From NCBI GenBank assembly GCA_964456235.1, contig CAYWDX010000001.1, forward strand, positions 125,935 to 189,934: a stretch of DNA of 64,000 bases. The letters run 5' to 3'. How positions within the stretch are numbered: the first letter of the stretch is position 1; the number at the start of each line of letters is the position of its first letter. Shown here piece by piece: positions 44,942 through 64,000 of this stretch. The stretch comes from an uncultured Candidatus Saccharibacteria bacterium. GTDB taxonomy: Bacteria; Patescibacteriota; Minisyncoccia; UBA6257; 2-01-FULL-56-20. A model generated the notes under the pieces. It did not search any database. It had not been told where the DNA came from and saw only the letters and a program-made list of their open reading frames with translations. A program made the position numbers and the translations under genes.

Positions 44942-46537
44942 ATGACGTTGTCTATCGTGATCCCTACGCTGAACGAAGCGTCGGGCATCGAGCGCCTCCT
45001 CGCGCAAATAAAAAATAAGCTTACCGAGATCGATTATGAGTTGATCGTCACCGACGACGGCTCGACCGACGGCACGGTCGGCATCGCGAAGCGCTACGCG
45101 AAAGTGATTTCTGAACCGAACCCGAATCGCACGATCGGCACGAACCGCAATAAGGGGGCTCGCCACGCGAAGGGCGAGTTTTTGGTTTTTATTGACGCCG
45201 ACATGTTCGTCCCCGAGCCGAATCATTTTTTCAAAGTGCTCCTTGATGAATTTCGCCGCGATCCGCAGCTCCTCGCTCAAACCGTAAATATTAAAGTGTA
45301 TCCCGACGAGGCGACGCGCGCGGACGACCTCTTCCTCGGCATCAGCAACCTCACGATGCGGTTCATGAACAATGCTCTCCGCATCGGCGCCTCGTCGGGC
45401 GAATTTCAAATCGTGCGGCGTTCGGCATTTGAACAAGTCGGCGGCTTCCGCGAACATCTCGTGGTCGCTGAAGATCAAGACCTCTTCCGGCGCCTCGCGA
45501 AAATCGGGCATACGCGCTTTGAGCATGGGCTCGAGGCGTGGAATGACGGGCGGCGCCCGCACACGGTTGGCTGGCTGCGGCTTTTCGCCCAATGGATTCG
45601 CAACTCAATCTCGTTGAGTTTCTGGGGCCGTTCCTACGACAAGACTTGGCATGAAGTGCGCTATTGGAAAATGAGTTTTGTGATCCCCGCCTACAATGAA
45701 GAGCATTACCTCGCCGATTGCCTGAAGGCGATCATGCGGCAAAAAGAAAAAACTTCCTACGAGATCGAGGTGATCGTGGTGAATAATGCTTCGACCGATC
45801 GCACCAGAGAAGTAGCGAAAGGATTTGCCGGCGTGAAAGTCGTTGACGAACCAAAAAAAGGGATCGTGTATGCGCGGCGCGCCGGTTTTCTCGCAGCGAC
45901 GGGCGATCTTATCGCGAATATCGATTCCGATTCGCGCCTCACGCCTGGTTGGATCAATAAAGTGGTGCAGGCGTTCGCGCGGGATGAAAAATTAGTTGCG
46001 ATTTCGGGCCCGTTCATCTATTACGACGCGCCGCGTTCGGTACGCATGGTTACACGCATGTTTTATGGCATCGGCTACCTCTTCTATTTCATCAACCGTT
46101 TCATACTACACACCGGATCCATGCTCCAGGGCGGAAATTTTGTCGTCAAAAAAACGGCGATCGACGCCATCGGCGGCTATGACACGTCAATCAGTTTTTA
46201 TGGAGAGGACACCGACCTCGCGCGACGCTTGAATAAAATCGGCCGCGTGCGATTTACCTTTAACCTGCCAATGTACTCTTCGAGCCGACGTCTCGCGAAG
46301 GAGGGCGCCTTCACGATCGGCCTCCGCTACGCCATGAATTATTTTTGGACGACTTTTTTCGGAAGGCCGTTCACGCACGCCTACATTGATATCCGCCCGG
46401 GCGAATCAAAACGCGGCGCCTCACTTTCCTTTACGCCGAACGAGGGGTGGAAGGAATGGGTGATCGGCGTAACCGCCCTCGTCCTTTTCGTCGCGATCAT
46501 TATTGGTCTTGCATACGCAATCTATTATTTCGCCTAG
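44942..46537 (+). CDS. tandem double-domain family-2 glycosyltransferase
   Basis: Two GT-A modules: LSIVIPTLNEASGIERLL...VTDDGSTDGT and SFVIPAYNEEHYLADCL...VVNNASTDRT; DxD-type motifs (IDAD, IDSD); C-terminal TM. Confidence 0.85.
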   Translation: MTLSIVIPTLNEASGIERLLAQIKNKLTEIDYELIVTDDGSTDGTVGIAKRYAKVISEPNPNRTIGTNRNKGARHAKGEFLVFIDADMFVPEPNHFFKVLLDEFRRDPQLLAQTVNIKVYPDEATRADDLFLGISNLTMRFMNNALRIGASSGEFQIVRRSAFEQVGGFREHLVVAEDQDLFRRLAKIGHTRFEHGLEAWNDGRRPHTVGWLRLFAQWIRNSISLSFWGRSYDKTWHEVRYWKMSFVIPAYNEEHYLADCLKAIMRQKEKTSYEIEVIVVNNASTDRTREVAKGFAGVKVVDEPKKGIVYARRAGFLAATGDLIANIDSDSRLTPGWINKVVQAFARDEKLVAISGPFIYYDAPRSVRMVTRMFYGIGYLFYFINRFILHTGSMLQGGNFVVKKTAIDAIGGYDTSISFYGEDTDLARRLNKIGRVRFTFNLPMYSSSRRLAKEGAFTIGLRYAMNYFWTTFFGRPFTHAYIDIRPGESKRGASLSFTPNEGWKEWVIGVTALVLFVAIIIGLAYAIYYFA

Positions 46538-46557
46538 TATTGTGATACAAGAAGATC

Positions 46558-47946
46558 ATGTCTGCCCGCAGTAAGGCGATCGTTTTCCTTCTTTTTCTCG
46601 GGGATGTCGTCGCGCTGTATGCGTGCCTTTTCCTTACGCTCTATGTGCGTTACGGCGGCGCATTTTACGATGCGTTCCTTGATGCGCACGTGCTGCCATT
46701 CTCGATCGTTTTTATACCGTGGCTGCTCATATTTTATATCGCAGGCCTCTATGACCTCCGCCGCCTCCGCAATAATCTCGATTTTTTTAAAACGTTAGCG
46801 CTCTCGCTCGGCACAAACGCGATCGTTGCCGTGCTCGTATTCTATCTCGTACCCGCGTTCGGCATCGCGCCCAAAACCAATCTTTTTATTTTCATTTTGA
46901 TTTTTGCCGTTATCGAATTGTTCTGGCGGCGCTTATGGAACCGGATGACGGAGTCGGCGGAGGCGCCGAATCGGGTGTTGCTCGTGGGGAATGGGAAAAC
47001 GACGGAAGAAATTCTTGAAACGCTCGCCGGCAATCCACAGTTCGGCTACACGATCGCCGCGCGCATTTCGGAAGATAAAGCCGATGAAAATCCCTCGGCT
47101 CTCGCGCGCATCGTGCGTGAGGCGAGCGCGAACCTCGTTGTTGTGCCGCGCGAGTTAAAACGGAAGGATACGCTCGCCCCGGCGCTCTATCAACTTTTTG
47201 GCGCCGGCACGATCATTCTCGACCTCGATACATTTTACGAAATTGTGATGCGCAAAGTGCCGCTGGGCGACGTGCGCGAAGCTTGGTTTTTGGAAAACAT
47301 CGAAGGCTCGGCGCGCTTTTACGATCCTTTCAAGCGCGCGGTGGAATTTTTATTGGCGCTCGTGACTGGCATCGTGCTCTTGCCGATCGAGATTTTGATC
47401 GCGCTCCTCGTGGCGGCCACCTCGCGCGGGCCGATCTTCATTCGGCAGGCGCGCGTCGGCGCGCTCGGCCGCAATTTCACGCTCATCAAATTCCGCAGCA
47501 TGGTGGCGCTCGCGCCGGACGGCCAGGCCGAAGCGAATGGCGCCCAGTGGGCCGCGAAAAACGACCGCCGCATAACGCCCGTGGGGCGGCTTCTCCGCGC
47601 GAGCCACCTTGACGAGCTCCCGCAGCTCTGGAACATCGTCCGCGGGCATACTTCATTTGTAGGCCCGCGCCCGGAACGCCCAGAATTCGTTGAGAAGTTA
47701 AAGCGCGAGATCCCCTTCTACGAGGTCCGGCTCTTGGTGAAGCCGGGCGTGACCGGGTGGGCGCAGATCAATTATCCAGCCGACGAGACGCTCGACGACG
47801 TGCGCCAAAAACTCCAGTATGATATTTACTACTTAAAAAACCGCTCGCCGATTCTTGACCTCGCGATCATTTTGAAAACGCTCAAATCGTTTTTCATTAA
47901 TCCGCAGCGGGAGAAAAAACTGGTGCAGCCGGCGAACCAATCCTAG
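46558..47946 (+). CDS. polyprenyl-phosphate sugar phosphotransferase (WbaP/WcaJ-like initiating enzyme)
   Basis: Bacterial sugar transferase domain: GPIFIRQARVGALGRNFTLIKFRSM...DELPQLWNIVRGHTSFVGPRPERP. Confidence 0.9.
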   Translation: MSARSKAIVFLLFLGDVVALYACLFLTLYVRYGGAFYDAFLDAHVLPFSIVFIPWLLIFYIAGLYDLRRLRNNLDFFKTLALSLGTNAIVAVLVFYLVPAFGIAPKTNLFIFILIFAVIELFWRRLWNRMTESAEAPNRVLLVGNGKTTEEILETLAGNPQFGYTIAARISEDKADENPSALARIVREASANLVVVPRELKRKDTLAPALYQLFGAGTIILDLDTFYEIVMRKVPLGDVREAWFLENIEGSARFYDPFKRAVEFLLALVTGIVLLPIEILIALLVAATSRGPIFIRQARVGALGRNFTLIKFRSMVALAPDGQAEANGAQWAAKNDRRITPVGRLLRASHLDELPQLWNIVRGHTSFVGPRPERPEFVEKLKREIPFYEVRLLVKPGVTGWAQINYPADETLDDVRQKLQYDIYYLKNRSPILDLAIILKTLKSFFINPQREKKLVQPANQS

Positions 47947-47965
47947 GGTCGCTATAATAAAAGGA

Positions 47966-48907
47966 ATGAAAATTATCGTGACGGGCGGAGCGGGATTCAT
48001 CGGTTCGCATGTGGTTGACGCGTATGTGAAAGCCGGGCACCGCGTGGCGGTGATCGATAACTTACTGACCGGCTTCCGCAAGAATTTGAATCCGCGCGCA
48101 ACGTTTTACAAAGCGGACATCACCGACCGCCATGCGATGAGCCGCATTTTCAAAAAAGAGCGGCCGGAAATCGTGAACCACCACGCGGCGATCGCCGAGG
48201 TCGTGAAGTCCCTGCGCGACCCGATCCCCACGCTCACGACGAATGTGCTCGGCACTACGAACGTGCTCTTGGCGTTCGGCGAATACGGGCGCGGGCACGG
48301 CAACCATGGGAACCCAGGGCGCAGTAAATTTATTTTTTCTTCGACCGGCGGCGCCATGTATGGCGACCCGAAGCGCTTGCCTGCAGATGAACGCGAAAAA
48401 ACGATCACACTTTCCCCGTATGGCCTTTCAAAACAGCTCGGCGAAGAAACGATAAAATTTTATGCCCGCCATTACGGGTTCAATTATTTCATTTTCCGTT
48501 ATGCGAACGTGTTCGGCCCGCGCCAGAATCCGAAAGGCGAGGCCGGCGTAATCGCCATATTTGGCGGGCTCATCAAGGCGGGTAAGCGGCCGATCATTTT
48601 TGGCGACGGCACGAAGGCGCGCGATTATGTCTATGTTGATGACGTGGCGCATGCGAACCTCCTCGCGCTCCGGCGCGGGAATGGCGAAACGGTGAATATC
48701 GGGCGCGGGAAATTGACGAGTGATCGAGAAATTTTTGACGCGGTTGCCGCGGAACTGGAATTCCGTGAGAAGCCGATCCATGCGCCGTATCGCACCGGCG
48801 AGCTCTATAAGATCAGCTTGAATGCGCAGAAGGCGCGGCGCGTGCTCGGATGGAAACCGAAGATGCCATTCAAGCTCGGCGTGCGGAAGGCGCTGAAAAA
48901 TTTGTAA
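47966..48907 (+). CDS. NAD-dependent nucleotide-sugar epimerase/dehydratase (SDR family)
   Basis: VTGGAGFIGSHVV Rossmann motif, YGLSK catalytic YxxxK. Confidence 0.88.
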   Translation: MKIIVTGGAGFIGSHVVDAYVKAGHRVAVIDNLLTGFRKNLNPRATFYKADITDRHAMSRIFKKERPEIVNHHAAIAEVVKSLRDPIPTLTTNVLGTTNVLLAFGEYGRGHGNHGNPGRSKFIFSSTGGAMYGDPKRLPADEREKTITLSPYGLSKQLGEETIKFYARHYGFNYFIFRYANVFGPRQNPKGEAGVIAIFGGLIKAGKRPIIFGDGTKARDYVYVDDVAHANLLALRRGNGETVNIGRGKLTSDREIFDAVAAELEFREKPIHAPYRTGELYKISLNAQKARRVLGWKPKMPFKLGVRKALKNL

Positions 48908-48910
48908 CGC

Positions 48911-50383
48911 ATGTTCAAACGAATACGATCGTTTTTGTTTGAAAATAAAACGGCGAAACAGACCGTCGCAAAAAATACGTTCTGGCTTTCGGTAACGAAC
49001 TTTGGCGGCCGCGCGGTGAAATCGATCATCGTCCTCTACGCCGCCCGCGTTTTGAACACGGCGGGCTACGGCGTATTTTCCTACGCGGTCACGCTCGCCG
49101 GTTTTTTCACGCTCTTCCTCGACCCCGGCGTGAACGCGATGGTGATGCGCGAAGTGCCGAAAGGCGACGAAGCAGAAAAGCGGTCGTTCCTCTCGACGAC
49201 GTTTGTCATCAAACTGATCCTCCTCGGCGTCGGCATCCCCTTCGTGCTACTGGTGGCGCCGCTCTTCAGCACGCTCCCGGGCGCGCCCGAACTGTTGCCG
49301 CTGGTCGCGCTCCTCGTGAGTTTTGACACCATCCGCGAGCTCTTCTCGGCCTTCATGCGCGCCCGGGAGCGGATGGAATGGGAGACCGCGAGCTTTATTA
49401 CGACGAACGTCGTCATTGTCCTTGCTGGCCTTTACTACCTTTCCATCTCCGCCACGCCTGCGGCGTTTGCCTGGGCCTATATCACCGGCACCGTCTGCGG
49501 GACGCTCGTTTCCATCGTCTTCCTCCGGGACTATCTCGGTGATCTTTTCTCCCGTTTTTCTAAAAAACTGGTTGGCCCTATCGTGCGCTCCGCGTGGCCG
49601 TTTGCAATCACGAGCGCCCTCGGCGCCCTGCTCACGAGCGCGGACGTCATCATCATCAGCTGGCTGCGGAGCGCATCCGACGTCGGCATTTATTCTGCGG
49701 CGGTGCGCATCGTGCAGGTGCTCTATTTGGTCCCCACCATTTTCCAATTCAGCACGCTGCCGCTCATCGCCCAGCTCGCGAATAAAGACAATGAGCGGTT
49801 GCGGAGCGTATTCGAACGGACGCTCGGCATGATTTTCCTCACGTCAGTCCCGCTCGCGATCGGCGGCATCATTCTTGCAAAACCGATCATGTCGCTCGTT
49901 TTCGGACCGCCCTACGTGCCCGGCGCGCCATCCTTCCAGGTCCTCATGCTCACGCTGTTCTTCGATTTCCCGCTCACGGTGATCAGCACCGCGATCTTCG
50001 CCTATAACCGGCAAAAAAATCTTATCGTTTCCGCTTCGATCGCCGGCGGGCTGAACGTAATTCTTGATTTACTCCTCATCCCGCCGTTCGGCATCACGGG
50101 TTCGGCGTTCGCAACGCTCATTGCGCAGGCAGCCACCAATTGGTACCTGTGGTCCGTCATGAAAAAAATAAATTATTTTGAAGTGTTGTCGAAACTCGGG
50201 AAAATTACGGCGGCAGGAATCGGGATGGGCGCCGTCACCCTCGCGCTTTATTTCGCCCACATCCATGCCGCTTTCAACATCGGCATTTCCGCGCTGGCTT
50301 ACTTCGCGTTTTTGAAATTATTCAACGAACCCTTGATGCAGGAGGTGCTGGTCACGCTCCACCTTACGAAAGCGACCGTTTAA
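48911..50383 (+). CDS. Wzx-type oligosaccharide flippase (polysaccharide biosynthesis protein, MOP superfamily)
   Basis: 490 aa, ~12-14 TM segments, N-terminal NTFWLSVTNFGGRAVKSIIVLYAARVL pattern. Confidence 0.85.
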   Translation: MFKRIRSFLFENKTAKQTVAKNTFWLSVTNFGGRAVKSIIVLYAARVLNTAGYGVFSYAVTLAGFFTLFLDPGVNAMVMREVPKGDEAEKRSFLSTTFVIKLILLGVGIPFVLLVAPLFSTLPGAPELLPLVALLVSFDTIRELFSAFMRARERMEWETASFITTNVVIVLAGLYYLSISATPAAFAWAYITGTVCGTLVSIVFLRDYLGDLFSRFSKKLVGPIVRSAWPFAITSALGALLTSADVIIISWLRSASDVGIYSAAVRIVQVLYLVPTIFQFSTLPLIAQLANKDNERLRSVFERTLGMIFLTSVPLAIGGIILAKPIMSLVFGPPYVPGAPSFQVLMLTLFFDFPLTVISTAIFAYNRQKNLIVSASIAGGLNVILDLLLIPPFGITGSAFATLIAQAATNWYLWSVMKKINYFEVLSKLGKITAAGIGMGAVTLALYFAHIHAAFNIGISALAYFAFLKLFNEPLMQEVLVTLHLTKATV

Positions 50384-51197
50384 GGCTCGAAAGAAATCGG
50401 TGCAATCTCCGCTGCGCGCCAAGCGGCAGGAACGAATACAGTTGCTGCGCCCGCGCGACCAGATAGGCCTTTCCGTAACCCGGGTACTCATGGCGATGCA
50501 GCTGCACGGTTCGCAAAATTTCTTCTGACTGCGAGCGTTTAAAAATGAACGTTTTGCTTTCTTCGGTCAGCCGGTAACGGATAAAATATTCCGGAAAATT
50601 ATAGAACGTGCCTCGGTTCCCCATCTTGAGCCACAAATCCCAGTCCTCGGCATTTTTGAACGGCCCGTACCCGCCAACGTCAAGCGCGAGCTTGCGCCGG
50701 AAGAGCACTGTCGAATGCGTGAAAGGGTTTGCGAGAAGCGCCCGCGCCCGAATGGTCGCGTCGTTCTCCGATTTCAAATAGCGGAATTTTTCTTGGTCGT
50801 GTTCGTCAACAACGATCACGCCGCCTCCGACGACAACGCAATCCGGGTGTGCATCCAAATAGGCGACCTGTTTTTTTAGTTTATCGCGATCACTCCACGT
50901 ATCATCATCGTCGAGGCGCGCGGCATATTCGCCGCGGGCCGCGCGCAATCCTTCATTCAACGTCCCCGAAATATCGGGATAATTATTTTTTTCATGATGG
51001 ACCGGGCGCACGCGGTGGTCGCTTTTCGCCAATGCATCGAGATACGCCCGCGTCCCGTCAGTCGAGGCGTCGTTAATTGCGATCAATTCCCAGTCATGGA
51101 ACGACTGCGCCGCAATGCTCTCCACCGCGCGTTTCAGCGTCGCCACGCGATTGAATGTCGGGAGAATGATGCTCACCCGCGGATCCCCGTTTTGCAT
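50364..51197 (-). CDS. family-2 glycosyltransferase
   Basis: VSIILPTFNRVATLKRAVESIAAQSFHDWELIAINDASTDGT; DDDD motif. Confidence 0.85.
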   Translation of the reverse strand: MQNGDPRVSIILPTFNRVATLKRAVESIAAQSFHDWELIAINDASTDGTRAYLDALAKSDHRVRPVHHEKNNYPDISGTLNEGLRAARGEYAARLDDDDTWSDRDKLKKQVAYLDAHPDCVVVGGGVIVVDEHDQEKFRYLKSENDATIRARALLANPFTHSTVLFRRKLALDVGGYGPFKNAEDWDLWLKMGNRGTFYNFPEYFIRYRLTEESKTFIFKRSQSEEILRTVQLHRHEYPGYGKAYLVARAQQLYSFLPLGAQRRLHRFLSSLKRSLS

Positions 51198-51307
51198 CCC
51201 ACTATTATATACTCGGAACGCCGGGATTATATACTCCGGCCGAAAGATCGAAACGCCGAAAAGGCTATGAAGATCGGTTTTTTTGTGCTAGAGTAGCCTC
51301 GTAAAAC

Positions 51308-52081
51308 ATGAAAACTATTATTTTGTGCGGTGGCCGTGGCTCGCGCATGAAAGAGGAAACCGAATTTCGTCCGAAGCCGCTCGTCACCGTGGGCGACAAG
51401 CCGATCCTGTGGCACATCATGAAAATCTATGCCCATCATGGGTTTAATGATTTTATTCTCGCGCTCGGCTACAAGGGCCACATGATTAAAGAATATTTCC
51501 TAAACCGCCGCATCATTGCGGGCGACTTCTCGCTCAACACGAAAACCGACGAAAAGACATTTCACGATGAACCGCCGGAAGATTTCAAAATCACTTTTGC
51601 CGAAACGGGTCTCGATAGCAATACGTCTGATCGCGTGCTCTTGAGCAAGAAATATCTCGGGGACGATGATTTCATGGTCACGTTCGGAGACGGCGTCTCG
51701 GACATTGATCTCAAGGCGCTCGTGGATTTCCATAAAAAACAGGGCACGGTCGGGACCGTCACCGGCGTCCACCTGAAATCGAAGTATGGCGTCATGAAAT
51801 TTGATCCGGAAAAGAAAAAGGTCACTCGATTCGACCAGAAGCCATTGATGTCGGACCATGTCGCCGGCGGTTTCATGATTTTCAAGAAGAAAGCGCTCGA
51901 TTATTTCCGCCCGGGCGAAATTCTCGAAATCGGACTCGGCAGGATGGTTGAGGAAGGGCAACTTTCGCTCTATCAACACGAAGGATTCTGGCGCGCGATG
52001 GACACCTACCAAGAAGTAGAAGAGTTGAATGACCTGTGGCGCAAGAACCAACCTTGGGCAATATGGAAAAAATCCTCGTAA
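51308..52081 (+). CDS. rfbF: glucose-1-phosphate cytidylyltransferase
   Basis: MKTIILCGGRGSRMKEETEFRPKPLV...ILALGYKGHMIKEYF, typical of RfbF (CDP-glucose pyrophosphorylase). Confidence 0.88.
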   Translation: MKTIILCGGRGSRMKEETEFRPKPLVTVGDKPILWHIMKIYAHHGFNDFILALGYKGHMIKEYFLNRRIIAGDFSLNTKTDEKTFHDEPPEDFKITFAETGLDSNTSDRVLLSKKYLGDDDFMVTFGDGVSDIDLKALVDFHKKQGTVGTVTGVHLKSKYGVMKFDPEKKKVTRFDQKPLMSDHVAGGFMIFKKKALDYFRPGEILEIGLGRMVEEGQLSLYQHEGFWRAMDTYQEVEELNDLWRKNQPWAIWKKSS

Positions 52082-53082: not shown

Positions 53083-53140
53083 CGCGCCGGGGTTTTCTCG
53101 ATCGTCGAATTCGCCCAGTTCGCGCAGCTTGCCGAGTCCG

Positions 53141-54007: not shown

Positions 54008-54109
54008 TTTAGTATGCCTTATTATAGAGTATGTCCCACGTACTTGACAAAAAATTGAAAATAGATTACAATTTTCCTAGCATTATATCCAATAAGGAGG
54101 ATTCGAGAA

Positions 54110-54917: not shown

Positions 54918-54956
54918 GACACCTCGGTTGTCTTTCGCTACACTTGAGAGACTGTT

Positions 54957-56231: not shown

Positions 56232-57269
56232 TTGCTCAATAAGATGCTTAAGGTTGGCATCGTTGGATCGGGGTTCGGCCTCTATGGCCTCCTCCCGGCT
56301 TTTCGCGGCGTGAATGGGTGTCGCGTCGTGAGCATCGCCGGCAAAAATACTCCGCGCCTCCTCGACTACTGCGCAAGTATTGGCCTTCAAAATATTTATA
56401 CGGACTGGCGTTTGATGCTTGCGCATGAAAACTTGGACGCCGTTGCGATTGCCGTTGTCCCGGCGACCCAATACACGGTCGCGAAAACCGCGATTAAAAA
56501 GGGCTTGCACGTGTTTGCAGAAAAACCGCTCGCGGTCAATTCAAGGCAGGCGAAAGAACTTCTTACGCTCGCCAAAAAACATCGCGTCGCGCACGGGATG
56601 GATTTTATTTTCCCCGAAATCCCCGCCTGGCAAGAAGTTAAAAAAAAATTAAAAGAGAATCGCTACGGCAAGCTAAAATATATTTCTTCAAACTGGGATT
56701 TTCTCAGTTACGACATTAAAAATAAATTAAAAGGATGGAAAACGGACGCATCTGCCGGCGGCGGCGCACTTTCATTTTATTTTTCCCACGTGCTTTATTA
56801 TTTGGAATATTTTACTGGTCCGATCGTCGGGCTCGCGAGTCAGCTCACTTACTCACGGGCAAGCCGGAATGGCGGCGACACCGGCGTGGATGTTATTGTA
56901 CGCTTCAAAAAAGGTGCCCATGGCTACGCTCACCTTTCTTGCAACGCCCCCGACATGAATCAGCATGAGATACTTCTGGTTTTCGAAAAGGCGGCGATCG
57001 TCCTTTCGAGCGAGAATGGGAGCGTGGTGAATTTCTCCCTGACCATCCACCAGAATGGCAAAATAAAAAAATGGCGGCCGGCAAAAATCGCCAGAACGGC
57101 TCGCGCCAAGCAAGGAATCAAGAATGGTGAAGATGAGCGGGTGGCCGTGGTCCGACGGTTGGCTGAACGGTTTATAAAAGCTTGCCGCGGCGGACGGGCG
57201 ATGGTCCCCTCATTTGCCGATGGTGTGCGGGTCCAGGAATTGATCGAGATGATCAGGCGGCAGCAATAA
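56232..57269 (+). CDS. Gfo/Idh/MocA-family NAD(P)-dependent oxidoreductase (sugar dehydrogenase/ketoreductase)
   Basis: LKVGIVGSGFG Rossmann N-terminus, AEKPLA motif; start is 1 nt after the C-methyltransferase stop. Confidence 0.88.
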   Translation: MLNKMLKVGIVGSGFGLYGLLPAFRGVNGCRVVSIAGKNTPRLLDYCASIGLQNIYTDWRLMLAHENLDAVAIAVVPATQYTVAKTAIKKGLHVFAEKPLAVNSRQAKELLTLAKKHRVAHGMDFIFPEIPAWQEVKKKLKENRYGKLKYISSNWDFLSYDIKNKLKGWKTDASAGGGALSFYFSHVLYYLEYFTGPIVGLASQLTYSRASRNGGDTGVDVIVRFKKGAHGYAHLSCNAPDMNQHEILLVFEKAAIVLSSENGSVVNFSLTIHQNGKIKKWRPAKIARTARAKQGIKNGEDERVAVVRRLAERFIKACRGGRAMVPSFADGVRVQELIEMIRRQQ

Positions 57270-58092
57270 GCTTTTCCATCCACTCTTTTTTTGCTTCAAG
57301 CGCAACCGCCGGCGCTCCCGCGCCCGATGACCCTTCAAAGTGGACAAAGTCGCCGCACTTACGCACCGGCACGCCCGGTGCAATTTCAATAAGCGGTGAG
57401 TCGTAGAAATCAATGAGATCCGGGATGGCCGTCGTGATTTTTTCATCGAGTGGGATGCGGCCGCCGGTGTCAACGCCAAAGTCCGGCAAAAAGTTGATCA
57501 TCTTTCCTTTGAAACGCTCGGTGCGGAAAAATAGCAAGCCAACCCACAAATACACCGGGTAGTGCCACGGCGTGAGGCGCGGTTTCAACTTGATAGAAAT
57601 TCCCCATGCCTCGCTCTTCGCCAAATAATCCGAAGCCTTGACCGGCTTCGTCGGGAACAAGTCGTAGTCCCAAAAACCGAACGCCCAAGGCTTAAATCGC
57701 AGCACGATGTTGCGATAGGCCCAGTTCAGCGACATGCCGTGCGCCGTTCCAGCGTCGCGTTGTTTATTGCCAATATTCTCGCTCAAGCGGGCGTAATTGA
57801 AATTATTTTCGAGACAATATTTTTTGATTTCCTGTGATTTTTCCTCGTTGTTGGAATTATCGACGACAAAATAGTTGTAGGGATCTTTAAAAAATTTATT
57901 GAGTGCTTTCACTTGGAGCCTCACCAGACTCAAATCGTTAAACGCAACGGTAATTACTGCCATCTTTTTCGGATCAATATTATGGAACGACTCGAAAAGC
58001 GACACCCGGCGGACAAAGCCATAATTAATGAAGGGCAAAATAAAAAAACGCCAGGCCTTCCTGCGCCACCGTGCGAAAAAAGTTTTCGGCAT
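57253..58092 (-). CDS. hypothetical protein, possibly GT-A-fold glycosyltransferase-like
   Basis: MAVITVAFNDLSLVRLQVKALNKFF...YFVVDNSNN resembles the N-terminus of GT2-like nucleotide-sugar transferases; likely real start at the internal Met. Confidence 0.5.
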   Translation of the reverse strand: MPKTFFARWRRKAWRFFILPFINYGFVRRVSLFESFHNIDPKKMAVITVAFNDLSLVRLQVKALNKFFKDPYNYFVVDNSNNEEKSQEIKKYCLENNFNYARLSENIGNKQRDAGTAHGMSLNWAYRNIVLRFKPWAFGFWDYDLFPTKPVKASDYLAKSEAWGISIKLKPRLTPWHYPVYLWVGLLFFRTERFKGKMINFLPDFGVDTGGRIPLDEKITTAIPDLIDFYDSPLIEIAPGVPVRKCGDFVHFEGSSGAGAPAVALEAKKEWMEKLIAAA

Positions 58093-58173
58093 AATTCACT
58101 TATTATATTGATTTTTTTTGAAAAGAAAAGGCCCGCGGAAATTTTCCGCGGGCCGAAATCTGAAACTGTCGCA

Positions 58174-58887
58174 TCAGGCCGGAGTGCCGATCCGGATGTC
58201 GGTCAGGCCCTGGTACTTGCCGGCCGCGACATCCGCAAGCCCCTTGGCTTCGTTCTCGAGCCGCTTCTTGCCATCGGCAGAGTCGTACGCCGCGTCGATC
58301 GCGGAGTCGTACTTCCCGGGTTCGTGGTGGCGCAGGACCTCTTCCGCCGAGATGAAGTCGATCGCGCACCTCACCTGGGGATTCACCCGCAGCACGGCCT
58401 CGTAGAGCGCTTTCACCCGAGGCGCGTGATACTCATTCGTGAGAATGGCGATGTACTTCCACCCTTCACCATGAACGATCGTGAGCACCTCGGTGATGTT
58501 GGTGAGCGAGCTCGTGGAGCGATCCTCATGGATCACCTCAACCTCGGCGTCGTCGCCGACGAGCTCGGAGAACATCTTCCCGTAGACGAACGCCTCCGTT
58601 GGAATGTCCTCGCCGAACATCTTCACCTGATGAGGCGCCTTGCCCGTCGTGAAGACGAACTCGTCCGCCTCCCCGGCCTTGAACAAGGCCGCGGCGGCGA
58701 AGACGCGCATATCCCCGCCCATCATGCCGAATTGGTCACCGTGCGCATAATCGGTAGGCTTGAACTCGTCGCCGACCTTCATGAGGCCGCCGCCGAGAAC
58801 CACCACCGCATCATATTTCAATGGGAAACTCCTCTCTCTCCTCCTGCGAAGTTTAAGCCGTAAAACTACTGGCGGCATTATATTCAA
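58174..58887 (-). CDS. DUF218 (YdcF/SanA/ElyC-family) protein
   Basis: YDAVVVLGGGL motif and overall DUF218 pattern. Confidence 0.65.
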   Translation of the reverse strand: MNIMPPVVLRLKLRRRRERSFPLKYDAVVVLGGGLMKVGDEFKPTDYAHGDQFGMMGGDMRVFAAAALFKAGEADEFVFTTGKAPHQVKMFGEDIPTEAFVYGKMFSELVGDDAEVEVIHEDRSTSSLTNITEVLTIVHGEGWKYIAILTNEYHAPRVKALYEAVLRVNPQVRCAIDFISAEEVLRHHEPGKYDSAIDAAYDSADGKKRLENEAKGLADVAAGKYQGLTDIRIGTPA

Positions 58888-58936
58888 GAACTATAAAAAT
58901 GTCAATGGCCTGTCATTGCGACAGGCCATTTTATTT

Positions 58937-59998
58937 TTACGAAAGATACGACTTCTCTTCCGCCGGCGTGAGATCTGGGTCGAGCACGTCGAACTTCCCT
59001 TTGGCAAAGTGGATGTACTCGCGGACGATGTCGTCGAGCGCATATTTTGGCGACCACCCTATTTCTGCCGAAATGCGTTCGATATCGGGAATTTTATTCC
59101 ACGCCTCCTCGTAAAGCGGGCCGTACAATTTTTTAGGATCGGTTTCGCGGATTTCACTCTTTGATTCGCAAAGGGCCACGATTTTGTGCGCGAGATCTTT
59201 AATAGAAAGAATGTTCGCCGGATTGCCCACGTTGTAGATGCGCCCGTCGACGCCGGAATTCATGATCATAACGAATGCATCGACAATGTCTTGTACGTGA
59301 GTGAACGTGCGCTTCTGTGATCCATCGCCGAACACCGTGAGCGGTTCGTTCTTTAACGCTGCGTCCACAAAACGCGGCACCACAAAGCCCGATTCACCAT
59401 TCTGGTTGGGGCCAATGATATTAAACGGACGGACGAAGTTCACATGGAGCGGCTGCACTTTGGCGAGATTTAAGAGTGCGATCTCGGTCATCAATTTCCC
59501 CACGCCATATTCGAGACGCACCGTAACATTCGCCGGAACCACTTTCGGAATATCTTCGTGCTGGCCAAGACCGCCTTCTGGATGCTTGCCGTACACCTCG
59601 GATGTCGAAACCATGAGCAGTTTTGCGTTGTCGCGGAGCGCGAGGTCGGCCATTTTCACCGCATCATTCAGGATGATAAGCCCCATCCGCCCGGCATATT
59701 TTAAAACGCCGGCTGGCCCCACGGGGCTCGCAAGGTGGTAGATTTGGTCATATTTCGTGCCCGACTGCGGCTTATAATCATCAACGGTTGCCTTGATGAA
59801 GCGGATATTGTTCTTCTTGAAAAAATTGAGGCGGCGTTCAGGCACCGAAGAACTCGAAAGGTCGTCCACGATGTCCATCGTCCCAAATTTTTTTTGTCGG
59901 ACGAGCTCGTTCACTAAATGGGTGCCGATAAACCCGGTGCCACCCGTGACGAGGACGCGCGGCTTCGATTTATGTTCGGTCGGAGACATTCCCGTCAA
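58937..59998 (-). CDS. NAD-dependent epimerase/dehydratase; UDP-glucuronate decarboxylase (UXS)-like
   Basis: VLVTGGTGFIGTHLV; catalytic YGVGK (YxxxK); adjacent to the UGDH-family gene. Confidence 0.8.
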   Translation of the reverse strand: MTGMSPTEHKSKPRVLVTGGTGFIGTHLVNELVRQKKFGTMDIVDDLSSSSVPERRLNFFKKNNIRFIKATVDDYKPQSGTKYDQIYHLASPVGPAGVLKYAGRMGLIILNDAVKMADLALRDNAKLLMVSTSEVYGKHPEGGLGQHEDIPKVVPANVTVRLEYGVGKLMTEIALLNLAKVQPLHVNFVRPFNIIGPNQNGESGFVVPRFVDAALKNEPLTVFGDGSQKRTFTHVQDIVDAFVMIMNSGVDGRIYNVGNPANILSIKDLAHKIVALCESKSEIRETDPKKLYGPLYEEAWNKIPDIERISAEIGWSPKYALDDIVREYIHFAKGKFDVLDPDLTPAEEKSYLS

Positions 59999-60770
59999 TA
60001 TAATTCTTATTGAGTTTTTTTACAAGAGCGAGCAGCTCGAGCGGTGACTTATTTTTCGCAGCATCATCAATGAGCGCGCTGGTATCTTTTGGGAGACACG
60101 CTCCTCCAAATCCGCGGTACCCATCATGAAAGATATTAAGGTGAATTTCGCCGCCCATCCGTGGTGCAAACTTTACAATATTTTTTACGGTCTCGTAATC
60201 AATCCCTTTCGCATGGCAGTAATCATACATTTGATTGGCGAACGTATTCTTGGTGGCCATGAAACTGTTCAATACATACTTCACCATTTCCGATTCGTTT
60301 GCATCGCAAATCACCGCGCGCGCCGCCGGCGGTAACATCTTCATCACTTCGTCGGCGCGGCTTTTTGATACTAGGGTTATTCCCAGTACCTGGATGTCAG
60401 GTGATGCGAAATCTTTTGCTGCCGTTTTGGAATCCAAAAATTCAGGATTATGGAAAAGGACCACGTCCGGACGCTCTTTTTGGAATTTTTCTGTAGTGCC
60501 GGGAATGACCGTAGATTTTATGATCGTAATTTTCCCTTTCGGAAGCGCCTTGATGATCTCGCCAAGCGCCGAGGCATCCTGGGCACCATCATCTTTCGTT
60601 GGGGTCGGCAGACAAAGGAACAAATAATCCGCCCTCACCACCTCATCAAAACTGCCAATATCCTTGTATTTATCGAATAAAAAAAGTTGCTGGCCTTCTT
60701 GTGCTTTGTAGTAGGCCGCAACCGCATTCCCTACGACGCCAACGCCGATAATACCGATCGATGGTTTCAT
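59970..60770 (-). CDS. UDP-glucose/GDP-mannose dehydrogenase-family protein (short, 266 aa)
   Basis: GIIGVGVVGNAVA NAD-binding motif; catalytic GGACLPKD motif; lacks the usual C-terminal UDP-binding domain. Confidence 0.7.
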   Translation of the reverse strand: MKPSIGIIGVGVVGNAVAAYYKAQEGQQLFLFDKYKDIGSFDEVVRADYLFLCLPTPTKDDGAQDASALGEIIKALPKGKITIIKSTVIPGTTEKFQKERPDVVLFHNPEFLDSKTAAKDFASPDIQVLGITLVSKSRADEVMKMLPPAARAVICDANESEMVKYVLNSFMATKNTFANQMYDYCHAKGIDYETVKNIVKFAPRMGGEIHLNIFHDGYRGFGGACLPKDTSALIDDAAKNKSPLELLALVKKLNKNYIDGNVSDRT

Positions 60771-60788
60771 TGACCAAGAAATAATAGC

Positions 60789-61829
60789 TCACTCTCGCAC
60801 GAGGGACAAGAACAACCCCTCATATTTTTTCGCAGCCACATCCCACGTGTGGCCTTCCGCCTCCCGGCGGGCCGCCGCGGAAAACGTGCGGCGCAAATGT
60901 TCATCACTTAATAATTTTTTAATGATCGCGACGAACGCATCGATTTCTTTTTCATCTTGAGGGACGAGAAACCCCGATTCGCCATCTTTCAAGAATTCAA
61001 CGCTTCCCCCGCTCTTCGACATCACGGGCACCGCGCCCGATGCCATCGATTCCAGAATGCAAAGCGCCGCCGGCTCGCGCAGGCTGGGGAACACGAAGAT
61101 TTCGCTTGAGGCGAGGCAAATCGCCATATCTTCCCGCGACATGAGCGGAATCGATTGGAAATTCGGGATGTCCTGCGCGCGCGTGAGAAAATCACCCTCG
61201 AGCTCTGGCAGCGGCCGCCCCACGGCGAGGAACGTGGCGTCCGGGAGCCGGCGGGCAATTTCGATGAACACGTCGGGCCGTTTGCGGCCCTGGAGCGCGC
61301 CGACAAACGTGACGATCGGTTTTGAAATATTGACGCCGAATTTTTCTGCGAGATGCGGCACGTTGCGCTTCGAGGGATGGAAGAAATTCGGATCAATCCC
61401 GTTCAGCACGAATTCAACACGCGTTTTTGGGAAAAACTTTTTGATCGTTCCCGCGGAAAACGCGGAAGGCGCGATCACCATGTCGGCCTGTGAAAAAATA
61501 AATTTGCGCAGGAACCACGGCATCCGCACGCGCCAGTGCGGCTCGCTTTTTTTGAGCATGATGCTTTGATAATGGAGCGCGTATTTGGTTTTTTTCGGCC
61601 GGCCGAAAACGCCGAGCATTTCTTCTGGCCGCCCGACCCCAAACAGTATTTCGTACTTGCCCGATCGACCATCCCATAAGGTGGGGCCGCTTCCGACCCA
61701 CTCATCGGAAAATGGCGGCGATGGGAGGCGCCCGAACACGTTGGCCATCGTGGTCTCTACGGAATCATAGGGACGCCCATTGCGGGGCTTGAGCGAAAGG
61801 ATGGCGATTTTTTGATTTTTTTGGTCCAT
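60789..61829 (-). CDS. family-4 glycosyltransferase (GT-B, glycos_transf_1)
   Basis: C-terminal VFPSLREPAALCILESMASGAVPVMSKSGGSVEFLKDGESGFLV (EX7E motif). Confidence 0.88.
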   Translation of the reverse strand: MDQKNQKIAILSLKPRNGRPYDSVETTMANVFGRLPSPPFSDEWVGSGPTLWDGRSGKYEILFGVGRPEEMLGVFGRPKKTKYALHYQSIMLKKSEPHWRVRMPWFLRKFIFSQADMVIAPSAFSAGTIKKFFPKTRVEFVLNGIDPNFFHPSKRNVPHLAEKFGVNISKPIVTFVGALQGRKRPDVFIEIARRLPDATFLAVGRPLPELEGDFLTRAQDIPNFQSIPLMSREDMAICLASSEIFVFPSLREPAALCILESMASGAVPVMSKSGGSVEFLKDGESGFLVPQDEKEIDAFVAIIKKLLSDEHLRRTFSAAARREAEGHTWDVAAKKYEGLFLSLVRE

Positions 61830-61850
61830 ACGCGATGGCGATAGAGTTGA

Positions 61851-62756
61851 TTATAGGCGGACCCACTCCGGCGGGAAAGCGTCCGTGTCATCAAAGGAAT
61901 TATTGTGGAACATGTCTTTGGTTGCTATCACGATCTTCCCAGGATTTTTCGACAGCCATGCGCCCCACCACGAGAAGGTGCTATTCGGTAATATAAAATG
62001 CTGACACAAGCTCATTAAGTGCAAATCTTCATCATCGGCGAACGGCGCGTGGCCTTCCGCAATGAAAAAATGTTTCGGTTTGATTTTTAAATTTGCGCGG
62101 CACCATTCCACCTCATCGGAAAAAACAAAAACGGTGATGTCGTTGCCGACTCTCTTCTCTATATATTCGATCGCCCGGTCGTAATAGGTCTGTCCAACGA
62201 CGACGTGCAAGCTGCTCGGGATGATCCCCCACACGCGGTCGCCGCGGCGCACGTGGAGCGCGACCGCTTTTGATGCCGTGATCCGTTTGGCCATTTCGGC
62301 TGCGGGGCCCATGAGCGGGCGGCGGAATGTGAAATCTTTTCGGATGGCCGCCTCCTGGTCTTTAAAATATTTTTCCGATATCCACCCGCCGTGCAGGTAT
62401 ACATCGCCGCGCAGCGCGGCGACTTCGGGGATGAAGCCATAGGTTTTCGTGTCTTTCACCATCTTGAAACGGCCGAGCGACGCGAGCATGGGGCCGTAGA
62501 GTTTTCCGACGATCGCGGGGAGATAGGGGATTTTGACGGCATTAAAAAATTTTGCGGCGGGCGTCAAAGGAAAATTGCCAGCAAAATATTTATCTAAAAT
62601 ATAATGGCGTTTTGCAGCACCCGGGCGGGACATCGGGTCAAGGAGCTCGAGAGGGTCGAGCCGGAGCTTGGTCCCCTGACGCAGCGAAAGGGCGCGCCCC
62701 GCGGCATATTGAAACATTTGATTCCCAACTCCACCGCCAAGCGCAACCGTGACCAT
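61851..62756 (-). CDS. family-11 glycosyltransferase (alpha-1,2-fucosyltransferase-like)
   Basis: N-terminal GGGVGNQMFQYAAGRAL; HVRRGDRV motif; C-terminal ...NSTFSWWGAWL. Confidence 0.8.
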   Translation of the reverse strand: MVTVALGGGVGNQMFQYAAGRALSLRQGTKLRLDPLELLDPMSRPGAAKRHYILDKYFAGNFPLTPAAKFFNAVKIPYLPAIVGKLYGPMLASLGRFKMVKDTKTYGFIPEVAALRGDVYLHGGWISEKYFKDQEAAIRKDFTFRRPLMGPAAEMAKRITASKAVALHVRRGDRVWGIIPSSLHVVVGQTYYDRAIEYIEKRVGNDITVFVFSDEVEWCRANLKIKPKHFFIAEGHAPFADDEDLHLMSLCQHFILPNSTFSWWGAWLSKNPGKIVIATKDMFHNNSFDDTDAFPPEWVRL

Positions 62757-62763
62757 AGGAAAG

Positions 62764-63444
62764 CTATTTCCGTTCCCAATTCTCCCAAATAAAGTGGTAC
62801 CCCCAGGTCATCCGATGGGTTGCCGTGAGATTCCGATGGATTTCTTCCATCCGGGCGTCGGCATTCGGATAAAACTCGTGGAACTGCACCTGAAAATCTT
62901 TTACCCTTTTGAGCCAACCGGTTTTCATGAGATGGGGCAGTAATTCGTATTCACCTCCTTCAATATTAATTTTCAGGAGATCAATTTCGCGGATGCCGAG
63001 CTCATCCATCGCCGCACCAAATTCCCGCATTTTGATTTCCATGTTGGGGTTGCCGCGGAAAAAACTGGAAGCTGCTTCGTCGAGGTGAATCCGCCGGGTT
63101 TCATTTTTATCGCCCAGCCCATATTCGAACGTTTTGATGTGCGAATTTTTCTTGAAGCGGTTTTTGGTGCTCTCCGCGTAATCGTGCACGGGTTCAAAGA
63201 CGTAAACGCGGCAAAGATATTTTGCAAAAATGTCGCTCGCGAAATCACCCTTATAGCCACCGAGATCGACCACCACCGAGTGCTCGTTCAAAAAATCGTA
63301 ATCGATGCGGACGCCGGTATCGCCCCCCGCATCGGCAAATTTCTTTTGCGCTTTTTCGATGGGGCTATAGATAAACCGGTCCCGGATCCATTTCCCGCCG
63401 GCCAGCAAGGTCCGGCGCACTTTGTATTTACGGTTTTCGGTCAT
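62764..63444 (-). CDS. FkbM-family SAM-dependent methyltransferase
   Basis: VVVDLGGYKGDFA SAM motif I; IDLLKINIEGGEYELL pattern characteristic of Methyltransf_21/FkbM. Confidence 0.8.
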   Translation of the reverse strand: MTENRKYKVRRTLLAGGKWIRDRFIYSPIEKAQKKFADAGGDTGVRIDYDFLNEHSVVVDLGGYKGDFASDIFAKYLCRVYVFEPVHDYAESTKNRFKKNSHIKTFEYGLGDKNETRRIHLDEAASSFFRGNPNMEIKMREFGAAMDELGIREIDLLKINIEGGEYELLPHLMKTGWLKRVKDFQVQFHEFYPNADARMEEIHRNLTATHRMTWGYHFIWENWERK

Positions 63445-63538
63445 GCGAATAGAAGTTGAGTAATACTCAATACGATAATAATAGGCTTATAATACGCTGC
63501 TTGCGCGACCGCTTCAACCCTTGGTGTAACTTGAGCGA

Positions 63539-64000
63539 CTAGAGTCGCACCCAGCCTGCCGGCACCACATCGCGCTCCAAGGCGGGGTCGGCATACCACT
63601 GCTTCGGCGCCACGATTATTTTCTTGTCGTTTACATTCAGCCACGCGCCCCACCACGAGAAGGTGCTGTTCGCGACAATGTTGTGCTTGCATCGCGACAT
63701 CAGTTCAAGATGGAAGGCATCGTTGGGGCCCGCCGCTTCCGCCGGGACCAATGTCATCGGATACGGGAGCTTGAGGTGTCCGCGGCACCATGCGACGTCG
63801 TCCGAAAAAATAAAAAAGTGCGGCCGCTCCACACGTTCGGCAATGTATTTTGCCGCGCGGTCATAATAGGAGAGGTCCATTTTCCCATGCAACGCTTCGA
63901 CGTTTTTCATTGAGACGAAATCTCCGCGCCGCACGTGCACCGAAACCGACGTGAATCCGGCTTCGTCCATGGCGTTCGCAATCGCAAGCGCCTCGCCCCG
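63539..64000 (-). CDS. second family-11 glycosyltransferase paralog (C-terminal part; N-terminus beyond window end)
   Basis: VHVRRGDFV and ...NSTFSWWGAWLN... match the neighbouring GT11; the ORF is open at the window edge. Confidence 0.75.
   Translation of the reverse strand, partial: RGEALAIANAMDEAGFTSVSVHVRRGDFVSMKNVEALHGKMDLSYYDRAAKYIAERVERPHFFIFSDDVAWCRGHLKLPYPMTLVPAEAAGPNDAFHLELMSRCKHNIVANSTFSWWGAWLNVNDKKIIVAPKQWYADPALERDVVPAGWVRL

Follow-up and report, generated by a model that had tools for sequence, protein, structure and literature searches.

The 64-kb stretch of contig CAYWDX010000001.1 analysed here at its full length, hereafter referred to as the window, ends in a dense block of surface-glycan genes which extends from 44342 to 64000 and runs on to about 64408. 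The open reading frames (ORFs) of the 42-64 kb section were listed and 20 plausible genes were scanned against Pfam and NCBIfam, the gene checks being completed by PDB sequence searches, two AlphaFold models and two fold searches. Nearly all of the 20 genes are glycan-related according to the curated thresholds of hidden Markov models (HMMs), about 97% of the locus is coding, the intergenic gaps lie between -46 and +110 nt and the GC content does not depart from that of the flanks. All the gene classes of the dense glycan locus claimed by a first-pass annotation of this DNA were recovered by these searches between 44342 and 64000. The start proposed at the time, 44942, leaves dedA (44342-44932) just on its left, the remaining inventory being retained; in agreement with that annotation, no unrelated gene interrupts the locus inside the window. 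Its genes are the following:

44342-44932, + strand: DedA/VTT-family membrane protein (PF09335, 51.5 bits; four transmembrane (TM) segments)
44942-46537, + strand: tandem GT2, a two-domain family 2 glycosyltransferase (GT) with a C-terminal TM helix (PF00535, 221 bits, residues 4-187 and 245-410)
46558-47946, + strand: PGT, large initiating polyprenyl-phosphate sugar-1-phosphate transferase (PF02397, 198 bits; six TM segments)
47966-48907, + strand: SDR1, GalE-like nucleoside diphosphate (NDP)-sugar epimerase-type short-chain dehydrogenase/reductase (SDR) (PF01370, 196 bits)
48911-50383, + strand: Wzx-type flippase of the MOP superfamily (PF01943, 113.8 bits versus 28.2; PF13440)
50364-51197, - strand: GT2a (PF00535, 117.7 bits)
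51308-52081, + strand: NT, RfbF-like sugar-1-phosphate cytidylyltransferase (TIGR02623, 252.8 bits, full length)
52036-53082, + strand: SDR2, best solved match 6vo6, translationally coupled to NT
53141-54007, - strand: GT2b (PF00535, 103.1 bits)
54110-54859, + strand: NUDIX-like protein of a small unnamed family, 249 aa (PF00293 above gathering score; Nudix fold)
54957-56231, + strand: C-MT, TylC3/TcaB9-type NDP-hexose C-methyltransferase (PF08421, PF08484, PF13489)
56232-57269, + strand: GFO, Gfo/Idh/MocA sugar oxidoreductase (PF01408, PF22725, PF02894)
57253-58092, - strand: GT-A-fold transferase, 279 aa, first labelled a GT-like hypothetical (AlphaFold2 model and Foldseek)
58174-58887, - strand: DUF218 (YdcF/SanA-like) protein (PF02698, 45.6 bits)
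58937-59998, - strand: SDR3, UXS/ArnA-type UDP-glucuronate decarboxylase-like SDR (human UXS1 in PDB, 1.5e-37)
59970-60770, - strand: UGDH-like two-domain dehydrogenase, 266 aa (PF03721 and PF00984 only; overlaps SDR3 by 29 nt)
60789-61829, - strand: GT4 (GT-B) (PF00534, 85.9 bits; PF13692, 72.6 bits)
61851-62756, - strand: GT11a, alpha-1,2-fucosyltransferase-type (PF01531, 107.3 bits versus 23.9)
62764-63444, - strand: FkbM-family methyltransferase (PF05050, 42.2 bits; TIGR01444, 56 bits versus 37.7)
63539-64000, continuing to about 64408, - strand: GT11b, the second GT11 gene (PF01531, 105.7 bits for the window fragment)

The locus opens with a + strand block composed of DedA, tandem GT2, PGT, SDR1 and Wzx (44342-50383). 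It continues with a section of mixed orientation, where GT2a (-) is followed by NT and SDR2 (+), GT2b (-) and the NUDIX-like, C-MT and GFO genes (+), and it closes with a convergent - strand block reaching from the window end back to 57253 and transcribed in the order GT11b, FkbM, GT11a, GT4, UGDH-like, SDR3, DUF218 and 279-aa hypothetical. Overlaps are found at NT/SDR2 and SDR3/UGDH-like, and the genes form three to five transcription units alternating between strands. The transferase inventory amounts to eight domains (tandem GT2, GT2a, GT2b, the GT-A orphan, GT4 and two GT11), with one PGT and one flippase. Three GT2 genes had been placed after Wzx, where only two stand alone (GT2a and GT2b), interleaved with nucleotide-sugar genes. 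With moderate confidence, and on the basis of gene homologies, we consider the region as a putative single compact locus of at least 20 genes over about 20 kb, encoding a polyprenyl-phosphate-linked, Wzx-flipped heteroglycan and including a C-methyl-hexose cassette.

The proposal of a Wzx-type, polyprenyl-phosphate-based glycan locus is supported by the PGT and Wzx, both above curated cut-offs. The PGT reaches 336 bits on TIGR03025 (cut-off 295.55) and is 62% identical to its homolog in a related metagenome-assembled genome (MAG) contig, locus L006; Wzx, with ten TM segments by a strict hydropathy count, is 54% identical to its homologs in L006 and in a second such locus, L004. SDR1 has galE as its top NCBIfam match, at 173 bits and under the cut-off, and shows the motif SSTGGAMYG/YGLSK without the D-E/D-K pair of dehydratases. 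DedA, whose gene opens the + strand block and precedes the tandem GT2 by 9 nt, best matches UptA in NCBIfam (NF052604, 63 bits against a cut-off of 250, hence an assignment at the family level only) and is a possible polyprenyl-phosphate recycling transporter.

No Wzy was detected in a six-frame hydropathy scan of the whole window, where the only proteins with at least four TM segments are PilC, BacA, an M48 peptidase, DedA, PGT and Wzx. PF04932 (Wzy_C-type) had no match among the 61 ORFs scanned, neither Wzz/PCP nor Wza was present among the Pfam-scanned ORFs, and no ligase or oligosaccharyltransferase was found anywhere in the 64 kb. The upstream 44 kb, searched for Wzy, Wzz and oligosaccharyltransferase, contains only housekeeping and type IV pilus genes, a restriction-modification/defence islet, BacA and PAP2. 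The earlier remark that no Wzy or Wzz could be recognised is thus borne out over the whole window by Pfam and hydropathy, and the Wzy, Wzz and ligase functions appear absent from it since the six-frame scan revealed no Wzy-like multi-TM protein. Wzy_C genes are located nearby in two relatives (L089 and L090), and the Wzy or ligase of the present locus may lie outside the window. The short heteroglycan for protein or lipid glycosylation suggested by the first-pass annotation is one possible product.

The proposed CDP-hexose cassette

The genes from NT to GFO (51308-57269, cassette 1) constitute the part of the locus from which a branched sugar had been predicted. The three domains of the C-MT all exceed their gathering scores (PF08421, 71.3 against 31.3; PF08484, 140.3 against 23.5; PF13489, 57.8 against 27), and the protein gives full-length alignments with TylC3, the D-mycarose 3-C-methyltransferase (PDB 4rv9, 1e-68, residues 14-419), with 5t64 (2.4e-64), presumably KijD1, and with TcaB9 (3ndi, 3.6e-59). 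Its Cys-rich, Zn-binding N-terminal domain displays two CxxC motifs (17-20 and 60-63) and C37. The domain assignment of the first-pass annotation therefore holds, and because the C-MT passes the HMM thresholds and aligns over its full length with solved TylC3/TcaB9 enzymes, the C-branched sugar that depends on this assignment is a reasonable prediction.

The GFO gene follows with a 0-nt gap between the C-MT stop and its TTG start, the gene call on a Logan contig starting at 56244. The nearest named relatives of GFO are levoglucosan dehydrogenase, UDP-GlcNAc 3-dehydrogenase, glycoside 3-dehydrogenase and 3rbv, a “sugar 3-ketoreductase”, which act at pyranose C3. Two other loci, L085 and L087, share the NUDIX-CMT-GFO order of the window with 40-76% identity (76% and 54%, respectively, for the C-MT; 56% for the GFO orthologs that follow it) and then carry a DegT gene.

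At the head of the cassette, NT falls below the TIGR02623 cut-off of 300.25, yet this model is by far its top match, and its orthologs of L085 and L094 likewise remain under the cut-off with 273-277 bits; NT also aligns with PDB 1tzf at 6e-56. Of the rfbF (CDP-glucose) assignment made initially, the RfbF-like family stands and the equivalog score does not reach its cut-off; judging from these matches, NT probably converts glucose-1-phosphate into CDP-glucose.

SDR2, which probably starts at the ATG of position 52063, has 6vo6 as its closest solved structure (2.8e-39, 36% identity over 301 aa, 138 bits versus 107 for the next match) and shares with it the block FGISPRMRLDL. It presents the motif SSCSLYG/YAESK, has no S/T-D-K/E dehydratase motif and reaches no more than 30.8 bits on TIGR02622, the model for CDP-glucose 4,6-dehydratases, on which SDR1 scores 58 bits (first 103 residues only) and SDR3 gives no match. 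No CDP- or dTDP-glucose 4,6-dehydratase was found in the window by HMMs, SDR motifs or tblastn, the tblastn queries with three dehydratase-type SDRs retrieving only 24-34% matches, all to the three non-dehydratase SDRs of the window. The term “deoxyhexose” is consequently not supported for the predicted sugar. The SDRs beside the orthologous NT of L085, L087 and L083 contain the motif ASSDKAYG, and those of L085 and L087 have the CDP-glucose 4,6-dehydratase model as top match with 193-207 bits.

These features set SDR2 apart from the 4,6-dehydratases and make it a candidate for a C4 dehydrogenase or reductase. The entry 6vo6, named in PDB only as a “putative sugar-nucleotide epimerase/dehydratase”, is presumably the C4 dehydrogenase Cj1427. 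Cj1427 oxidises GDP-heptose to its 4-keto form without dehydration, by means of a tightly bound NADH recycled by 2-oxoglutarate (PMC10680097). Moreover, an independent cassette occurs in L094 and L095, where NT is accompanied by a class I methyltransferase, an SDR2 ortholog (49-51% identity), a C-MT, an RmlC-like 3,5-epimerase and a NUDIX gene, with no dehydratase-type SDR. Since the C-MT and RmlC families of these loci need a 4-keto substrate, the SDR2 subfamily would supply, or at least handle, the 4-keto intermediate.

The remaining member of the cassette, the NUDIX-like protein, belongs to an unnamed family of 72 homolog clusters, all of about 255 aa. The Nudix box of the family is canonical (GGAVDPxE-x7-RELxEETGV, with E138 and E142 invariant); in the window protein, D replaces the first E and the spacer has one extra residue (GGATDPAD-x8-RELKEETEA). 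PF00293 was detected in 34/34 aligned members and PF03559 (2,3-dehydratase) in 0/34, a profile search of the family against PDB retrieved NudF, MutT and ADP-sugar pyrophosphatases, and the closest folds are those of NDP-sugar and ADP-ribose pyrophosphatases. The canonical box of the family, the presence of PF00293 without PF03559 and the pyrophosphatase matches in PDB thus favour a Nudix pyrophosphatase, probably directed at a CDP-sugar in the manner of WcaH.

The genomic neighbourhood of the NUDIX-like family was mapped by tblastn in 46 loci, and neighbours within 8 kb were counted in the 20 non-redundant loci that were flanked by 6 kb or more. An RfbF-like NT of at least 40% identity is present beside the NUDIX-like gene in 12/20 loci (44-59% identical to the window NT), a dehydratase-type SDR in 9/20, a DegT aminotransferase in 7/20, an RmlC-like epimerase and a C-methyltransferase in 6/20 each, a thiamine diphosphate (ThDP) enzyme, a split transketolase and a GFO ortholog in 2/20 each and an SDR2 ortholog in 1/20. 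The family (loci L083-L087 and L093-L133) marks uncharacterised CDP-hexose editing cassettes in metagenomes. The cassette of L094 (387-12433; JGI Ga0209542_10002900) is flanked by four radical-SAM genes, two of them SPASM and one B12-binding, which may point to additional C-alkylation or to uncommon reactions on the sugar.

On these grounds, NT would activate a hexose-1-phosphate, most likely as CDP-glucose, and SDR2 would supply a 4-keto sugar retaining its 6-hydroxyl. C-MT would then methylate the carbon beside the ketone, C3 or less likely C5, and GFO would perform the remaining redox step, either the keto reduction or an oxidation/reduction at C3. The NUDIX-like protein would most likely serve as a CDP-sugar pyrophosphatase controlling the pool or clearing reactive intermediates. 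That the product is a C-methyl hexose formed via C4 oxidation, and not a C-methyl 6-deoxyhexose, is suggested by these homologies with a probability that we place a little short of even.

Alternative readings

Several observations weigh against this C4-oxidation route. The substrates and the regiochemistry are all assigned by homology; the nucleotide and the sugar handled by NT are not certain, given its score below the RfbF equivalog cut-off, and the 36% identity between SDR2 and 6vo6 does not prove a C4-dehydrogenase activity. SDR2 could be an epimerase or a terminal 4-ketoreductase, which would leave the 4-keto source unexplained or located elsewhere in the genome. The role of GFO is ambiguous because C3 becomes a tertiary alcohol after C3 methylation. 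Finally, the CMT-GFO pair of L085 and L087 sits with a bona fide dehydratase-type SDR, so that the ancestral cassette probably acts on 4-keto-6-deoxy sugars.

This last point agrees with a more classical chemistry, in which a C-methyl-branched 6-deoxyhexose would be formed from CDP-glucose via CDP-4-keto-6-deoxyglucose, followed by C-methylation and a final reduction of the ketone, SDR2 being a non-canonical dehydratase or the dehydratase being encoded elsewhere. The same logic has been shown for mycarose and proposed for virenose (PMC3539893). The characterised TylC3-family enzymes are all known to act on 4-keto-6-deoxy sugars, where they place the methyl group beside the C4 ketone. This ketone is normally produced by a 4,6-dehydratase, and 4,6-dehydratases start all deoxysugar pathways (PMC3539893, PMC8987622). 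In addition to the CMT-GFO pair of L085 and L087, the C-MTs of L103 and L132 adjoin SDK-motif dehydratase-type SDRs, and the window is only 64 kb of a contig of at least 323 kb. Conversely, no SDR of the window has the acid/base pair of dehydratases, the dehydratase queries only reached non-dehydratase SDRs at the low identities reported above, and SDR2, which occupies the exact NT-coupled slot of the dehydratase, is of a different SDR subfamily and recurs in this company in L094 and L095. We therefore regard the 6-deoxy route as rather unlikely. A 2-deoxy-3-C-methyl sugar of the mycarose type, for which the NUDIX-like protein would be a relative of the 2,3-dehydratases EvaA and TylX3 and GFO a 3-ketoreductase similar to KijD10/TylC1, appears very improbable. 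The trio of Nudix fold, GFO and C-MT does parallel three steps of the mycarose and kijanose pathways (2,3-dehydratase, 3-ketoreductase and 3-C-methyltransferase), its order is kept in three loci and the 3-ketoreductase 3rbv is among the PDB matches of GFO; 2,3-dehydratases are themselves Nudix-superfamily proteins (PMC8987622). The domain content of the 34 aligned family members, their canonical hydrolase box and their pyrophosphatase-like folds and profiles nevertheless point elsewhere. The NUDIX-like protein is also a single domain of 249 aa when EvaA is a double domain of 447 aa, and it occurs without C-MT in 14/20 loci and without GFO in 18/20, its partner being the NT/SDR pair.

A further alternative concerns the unity of the locus itself. 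The formula “one glycan, one locus” is an assumption, since the window encodes no Wzy, ligase or oligosaccharyltransferase, and the region could be a mosaic of two or three independent modules (an initiation/flippase operon on the + strand, a CDP-sugar cassette and a GT/UXS-like operon on the - strand) directed to different acceptors (e.g. a wall polymer and the O-glycosylation of a pilin or S-layer), with Wzx serving only one of them. The alternation of strands among the transcription units, the proximity of pilin-like genes, the breaks of independent assemblies at or near GT11b, which suggest a strain-variable content, and the comparison with L004 and L006, which share only PGT, Wzx, GT2a and GT11 (38-68% identity) and differ in the rest, would fit such a mosaic. 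Against it stand the single PGT and single flippase available for eight transferase domains, the lack of unrelated genes, the near absence of intergenic space and the GC content uniform with the flanks; besides, mixed strands are common in single O-antigen and capsule loci. We judge the mosaic unlikely and retain the single heteroglycan locus with its putative C4-oxidation cassette.

Putative pentose genes, transferases and flanking regions

SDR3 also matches ArnA and UDP-apiose/xylose synthase, and PRK11908 with 133 bits against a cut-off of 294. Its motif, STSEVYG/YGVGK, is of the decarboxylase type (T-S-E and YxxxK) and it falls below every NCBIfam cut-off; xylose, a 4-keto-pentose and apiose are all candidate products. 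The adjoining UGDH-like protein retains both the NAD-binding and the central domain as well as the catalytic GGACLPKD, without the C-terminal UDP-binding domain. It aligns with residues 82-300 of the 446-aa 4a7p and lacks about 38 residues of the N-terminal domain, and neither a full-length UGDH nor the C-terminal PF03720 domain is encoded anywhere in the window. As a comparison, a Nomurabacteria locus (L055) has a normal 440-aa UGDH, which matches the window only over its residues 78-297, and a 311-aa UXS, to which SDR3 is 31% identical. A UDP-xylose module had been assigned here: the UXS-type SDR motif agrees with it, but the assignment is weakened by the two-domain UGDH-like protein found in place of a three-domain UGDH. 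SDR3 and UGDH-like (cassette 2, 58937-60770) may supply a pentose or a 4-keto-pentose, a supply that is uncertain because the UGDH-like protein has no UDP-binding domain.

The short UGDH-like protein has 1132 homologs at E<=1e-10. The best 120 of these are 257-412 aa long, 117 of them within 257-300 aa; 118 have only PF03721 and PF00984 and none has PF03720. They are labelled hypothetical by NCBI and originate mostly from Patescibacteria lineages, those named being Nomurabacteria, Azambacteria, Nealsonbacteria, Paceibacterota and the “Patescibacteria group”. A truncated pseudogene was ruled out, the best 120 of the 1132 homologs being equally short, including those of the named Patescibacteria lineages. 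Three contexts of the short gene (L088-L090) are all glycan loci with differing neighbours, and no consistent partner was found across them. One homolog (P0137) is fused to a CTP_transf_like domain.

Among the transferases, the tandem GT2 has its TM segment at about residue 502 and GT2a is 68% identical to its L004 homolog. The 279-aa protein has no match in Pfam or NCBIfam, and a set of 5.8 billion proteins yielded only 12 clusters of homologs, one of them with PF00535. D78-N79-S80 and D142-x-D144 are invariant in the homolog alignment, and the AlphaFold2 model (pLDDT 85.7) has exclusively GT-A proteins as top Foldseek neighbours (SpsA, TarP and COLGALT1, probability 1.0). The motifs, the model and the fold search uphold its initial GT-like label, and it is effectively an orphan GT family. 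The two GT11 genes agree with the fucose-type transferases previously reported. The fucose reading itself is weakened by the absence of gmd and fcl from the locus, in which the three SDRs score at most 42 bits on gmd (TIGR01472) and 54 bits on Fcl. FkbM is a probable sugar O-methyltransferase according to its family, and the start of the DUF218 gene is probably internal, giving a 215-aa protein (58174-58821) that is also called in this shorter form on the Logan contig. Altogether, the transferases are available for extending the unit on the PGT-primed carrier, FkbM can decorate it and Wzx exports it.

GT11b is represented by a 289-aa version on a 24.5-kb Logan contig (L001; PF01531, 107.1 bits). 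Exact-protein look-ups for FkbM, GT11a and the UGDH-like protein retrieved Logan contigs only, and that for the NUDIX-like protein had no match. The closest homologs of GT11b (47-50% identity) belong to Candidatus Paceibacterota and to other bacterial MAGs that are GTDB representatives. Two GT11b-homolog loci, the related MAG contigs L004 and L006, also encode a GT2a (39-68% identity), in addition to the Wzx and, in L006, the PGT mentioned above. Considered with the Patescibacteria lineages of the UGDH-like homologs and with the pilus and competence (DprA) genes of the window, these matches indicate a probable Patescibacteria (CPR) origin, most likely in Paceibacterota. Three independent assemblies end within about 1 kb of GT11b or its homolog (L001 1-872, L004 344-1195 and L006 1009-1848), L001 ending inside GT11b at about 64410; these breaks suggest a strain-level variability or a repeat located just beyond.

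Upstream of 44342, the genes are unrelated to the glycan locus: a DsbA-like protein, a pilin-like NHL-repeat protein, thioredoxin reductase, GroEL, LemA and an M48 peptidase, and farther upstream gyrB, BacA, PAP2, the restriction-modification/defence islet, IF-2, ParAB, RelA/SpoT, TopA, DprA and type IV pilus genes. The latter (819-5095 and 41997-43469) include a PilC-like T2SSF protein, a PilB-like T2SSE ATPase and two pilin-like N_methyl proteins. The NHL-repeat protein (490 aa), encoded just upstream of the glycan locus beside the DsbA-like gene, bears an N-terminal pilin methylation motif, and pilin-like proteins are possible glycosylation targets. BacA/UppP and a PAP2 phosphatase are encoded side by side, in addition to a polysaccharide deacetylase (25412-26814 and 17440-18096). 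BacA/UppP and PAP2 are candidate undecaprenyl-pyrophosphate phosphatases that lie outside the locus and would complement DedA. The defence islet (20953-24388) directly follows tRNA-Ser(GCT), has a low GC content (35-37% versus about 54%) and comprises an EcoRI-type adenine methylase, a GmrSD-N/HNH endonuclease and an HTH-IrrE (M78) regulator. A restriction/defence island that entered by horizontal transfer and inserted at the tRNA is the probable explanation. An unusually large 984-aa protein with an LCAT-like alpha/beta-hydrolase domain is encoded beside tRNA genes at 5990-8944 (-).

Significance and comparison with known systems

The region holds a true Wzx-type heteroglycan locus, compact and of a known general type, and the branched-sugar prediction still stands; the gene cluster itself is fairly ordinary, and the methyl-branching gene set is its one unusual part. 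Patescibacteria are believed to rely on contact between their surface and host microbes, and C-methyl sugar chemistry is known mainly from work on actinomycete antibiotics and on a small number of lipopolysaccharide (LPS) sugars such as virenose. An abundance of surface-modification genes has already been described for Patescibacteria genomes (PMC12911398). The locus adds a well-resolved example of a Patescibacteria surface-glycan cluster and suggests that such glycans may hold C-methyl-branched sugars. It also provides three enzyme leads: the 6vo6-type SDR in the dehydratase slot, the Nudix family linked to CDP-hexoses and the large short-UGDH family. The understanding of glycan loci in general is unchanged, and the functional statements are predictions from homology.

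A broader scenario would join these leads, at the price of a low probability for the whole. The NT-SDR2-NUDIX-CMT-GFO set would produce an undescribed CDP-activated C-methyl hexose keeping its 6-hydroxyl, a Cj1427-type C4 dehydrogenase replacing the otherwise universal 4,6-dehydratase. The Nudix protein of about 255 aa would be obligatory in a group of uncharacterised CDP-hexose editing pathways (C-MT, ThDP/transketolase branching, aminotransferase and radical-SAM) found widely among Patescibacteria and further uncultured bacteria. To these loci the short UGDH-like family would add another sugar-oxidising activity, likewise uncharacterised. No relevant match was obtained when the literature was searched for a described pathway combining RfbF and a C-methyltransferase. 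If this scenario were true, the surface of ultra-small episymbionts would bear branched sugars of a kind otherwise familiar from antibiotics.

In its general composition, with a Bac_transf PGT, a MOP-family Wzx, GT2, GT4 and GT11 transferases and nucleotide-sugar genes, the locus resembles the Wzx/Wzy clusters for O-antigen, capsule and exopolysaccharide, such as the colanic acid wca and Gram-positive cps clusters. The colanic acid cluster includes the Nudix gene wcaH/gmm among its sugar-nucleotide genes, and a Nudix gene is embedded in the same manner here. Unlike these clusters, the locus has no Wzy, Wzz/PCP, Wza or ligase within 64 kb, DedA heads its operon and the host is probably a Patescibacteria cell without outer membrane. 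SDR3, with its decarboxylase motifs, and the adjoining UGDH-family gene recall the UGDH-UXS/ArnA modules, from which they differ by the 266-aa, two-domain UGDH-family partner devoid of a UDP-binding domain.

The association of a three-domain C-MT with a nucleotidyltransferase, an SDR and a Gfo/Idh/MocA protein is shared with the TylC3/EryBIII/TcaB9/KijD1 pathways (mycarose, tetronitrose and kijanose), and the presence of a C-MT in a surface-glycan and not an antibiotic context is shared with the virenose pathway proposed for the LPS of Coxiella burnetii (PMC3539893). Activation differs from both, being RfbF-like (CDP) instead of RmlA-like (dTDP) or GDP-based. In contrast with the TylC3-type pathways, the window encodes no 4,6-dehydratase, no 2,3-dehydratase (PF03559) and no RmlC, and the coupled SDR is of the 6vo6 subfamily. 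The CDP-3,6-dideoxyhexose and yersiniose loci (RfbF/DdhA and RfbG/DdhB, then E1/E3 or YerE/YerF) share the RfbF-like cytidylyltransferase, whereas the window has no RfbG, E1/E3 or ThDP enzymes; four of the related loci (L085, L087, L109 and L122) carry dehydratase-type SDRs and ThDP/transketolase-type branching enzymes, recalling YerE. The capsular heptose modification of Campylobacter jejuni (Cj1427; PMC10680097) relies on GDP-heptose, epimerases and SDR reductases, unlike the probable CDP-hexose, C-MT and Gfo/Idh/MocA oxidoreductase of the present locus, and it offers the parallel for the logic proposed here, in which the sugar would be oxidised at C4 without 6-deoxygenation, edited at the neighbouring carbon and reduced again at C4.

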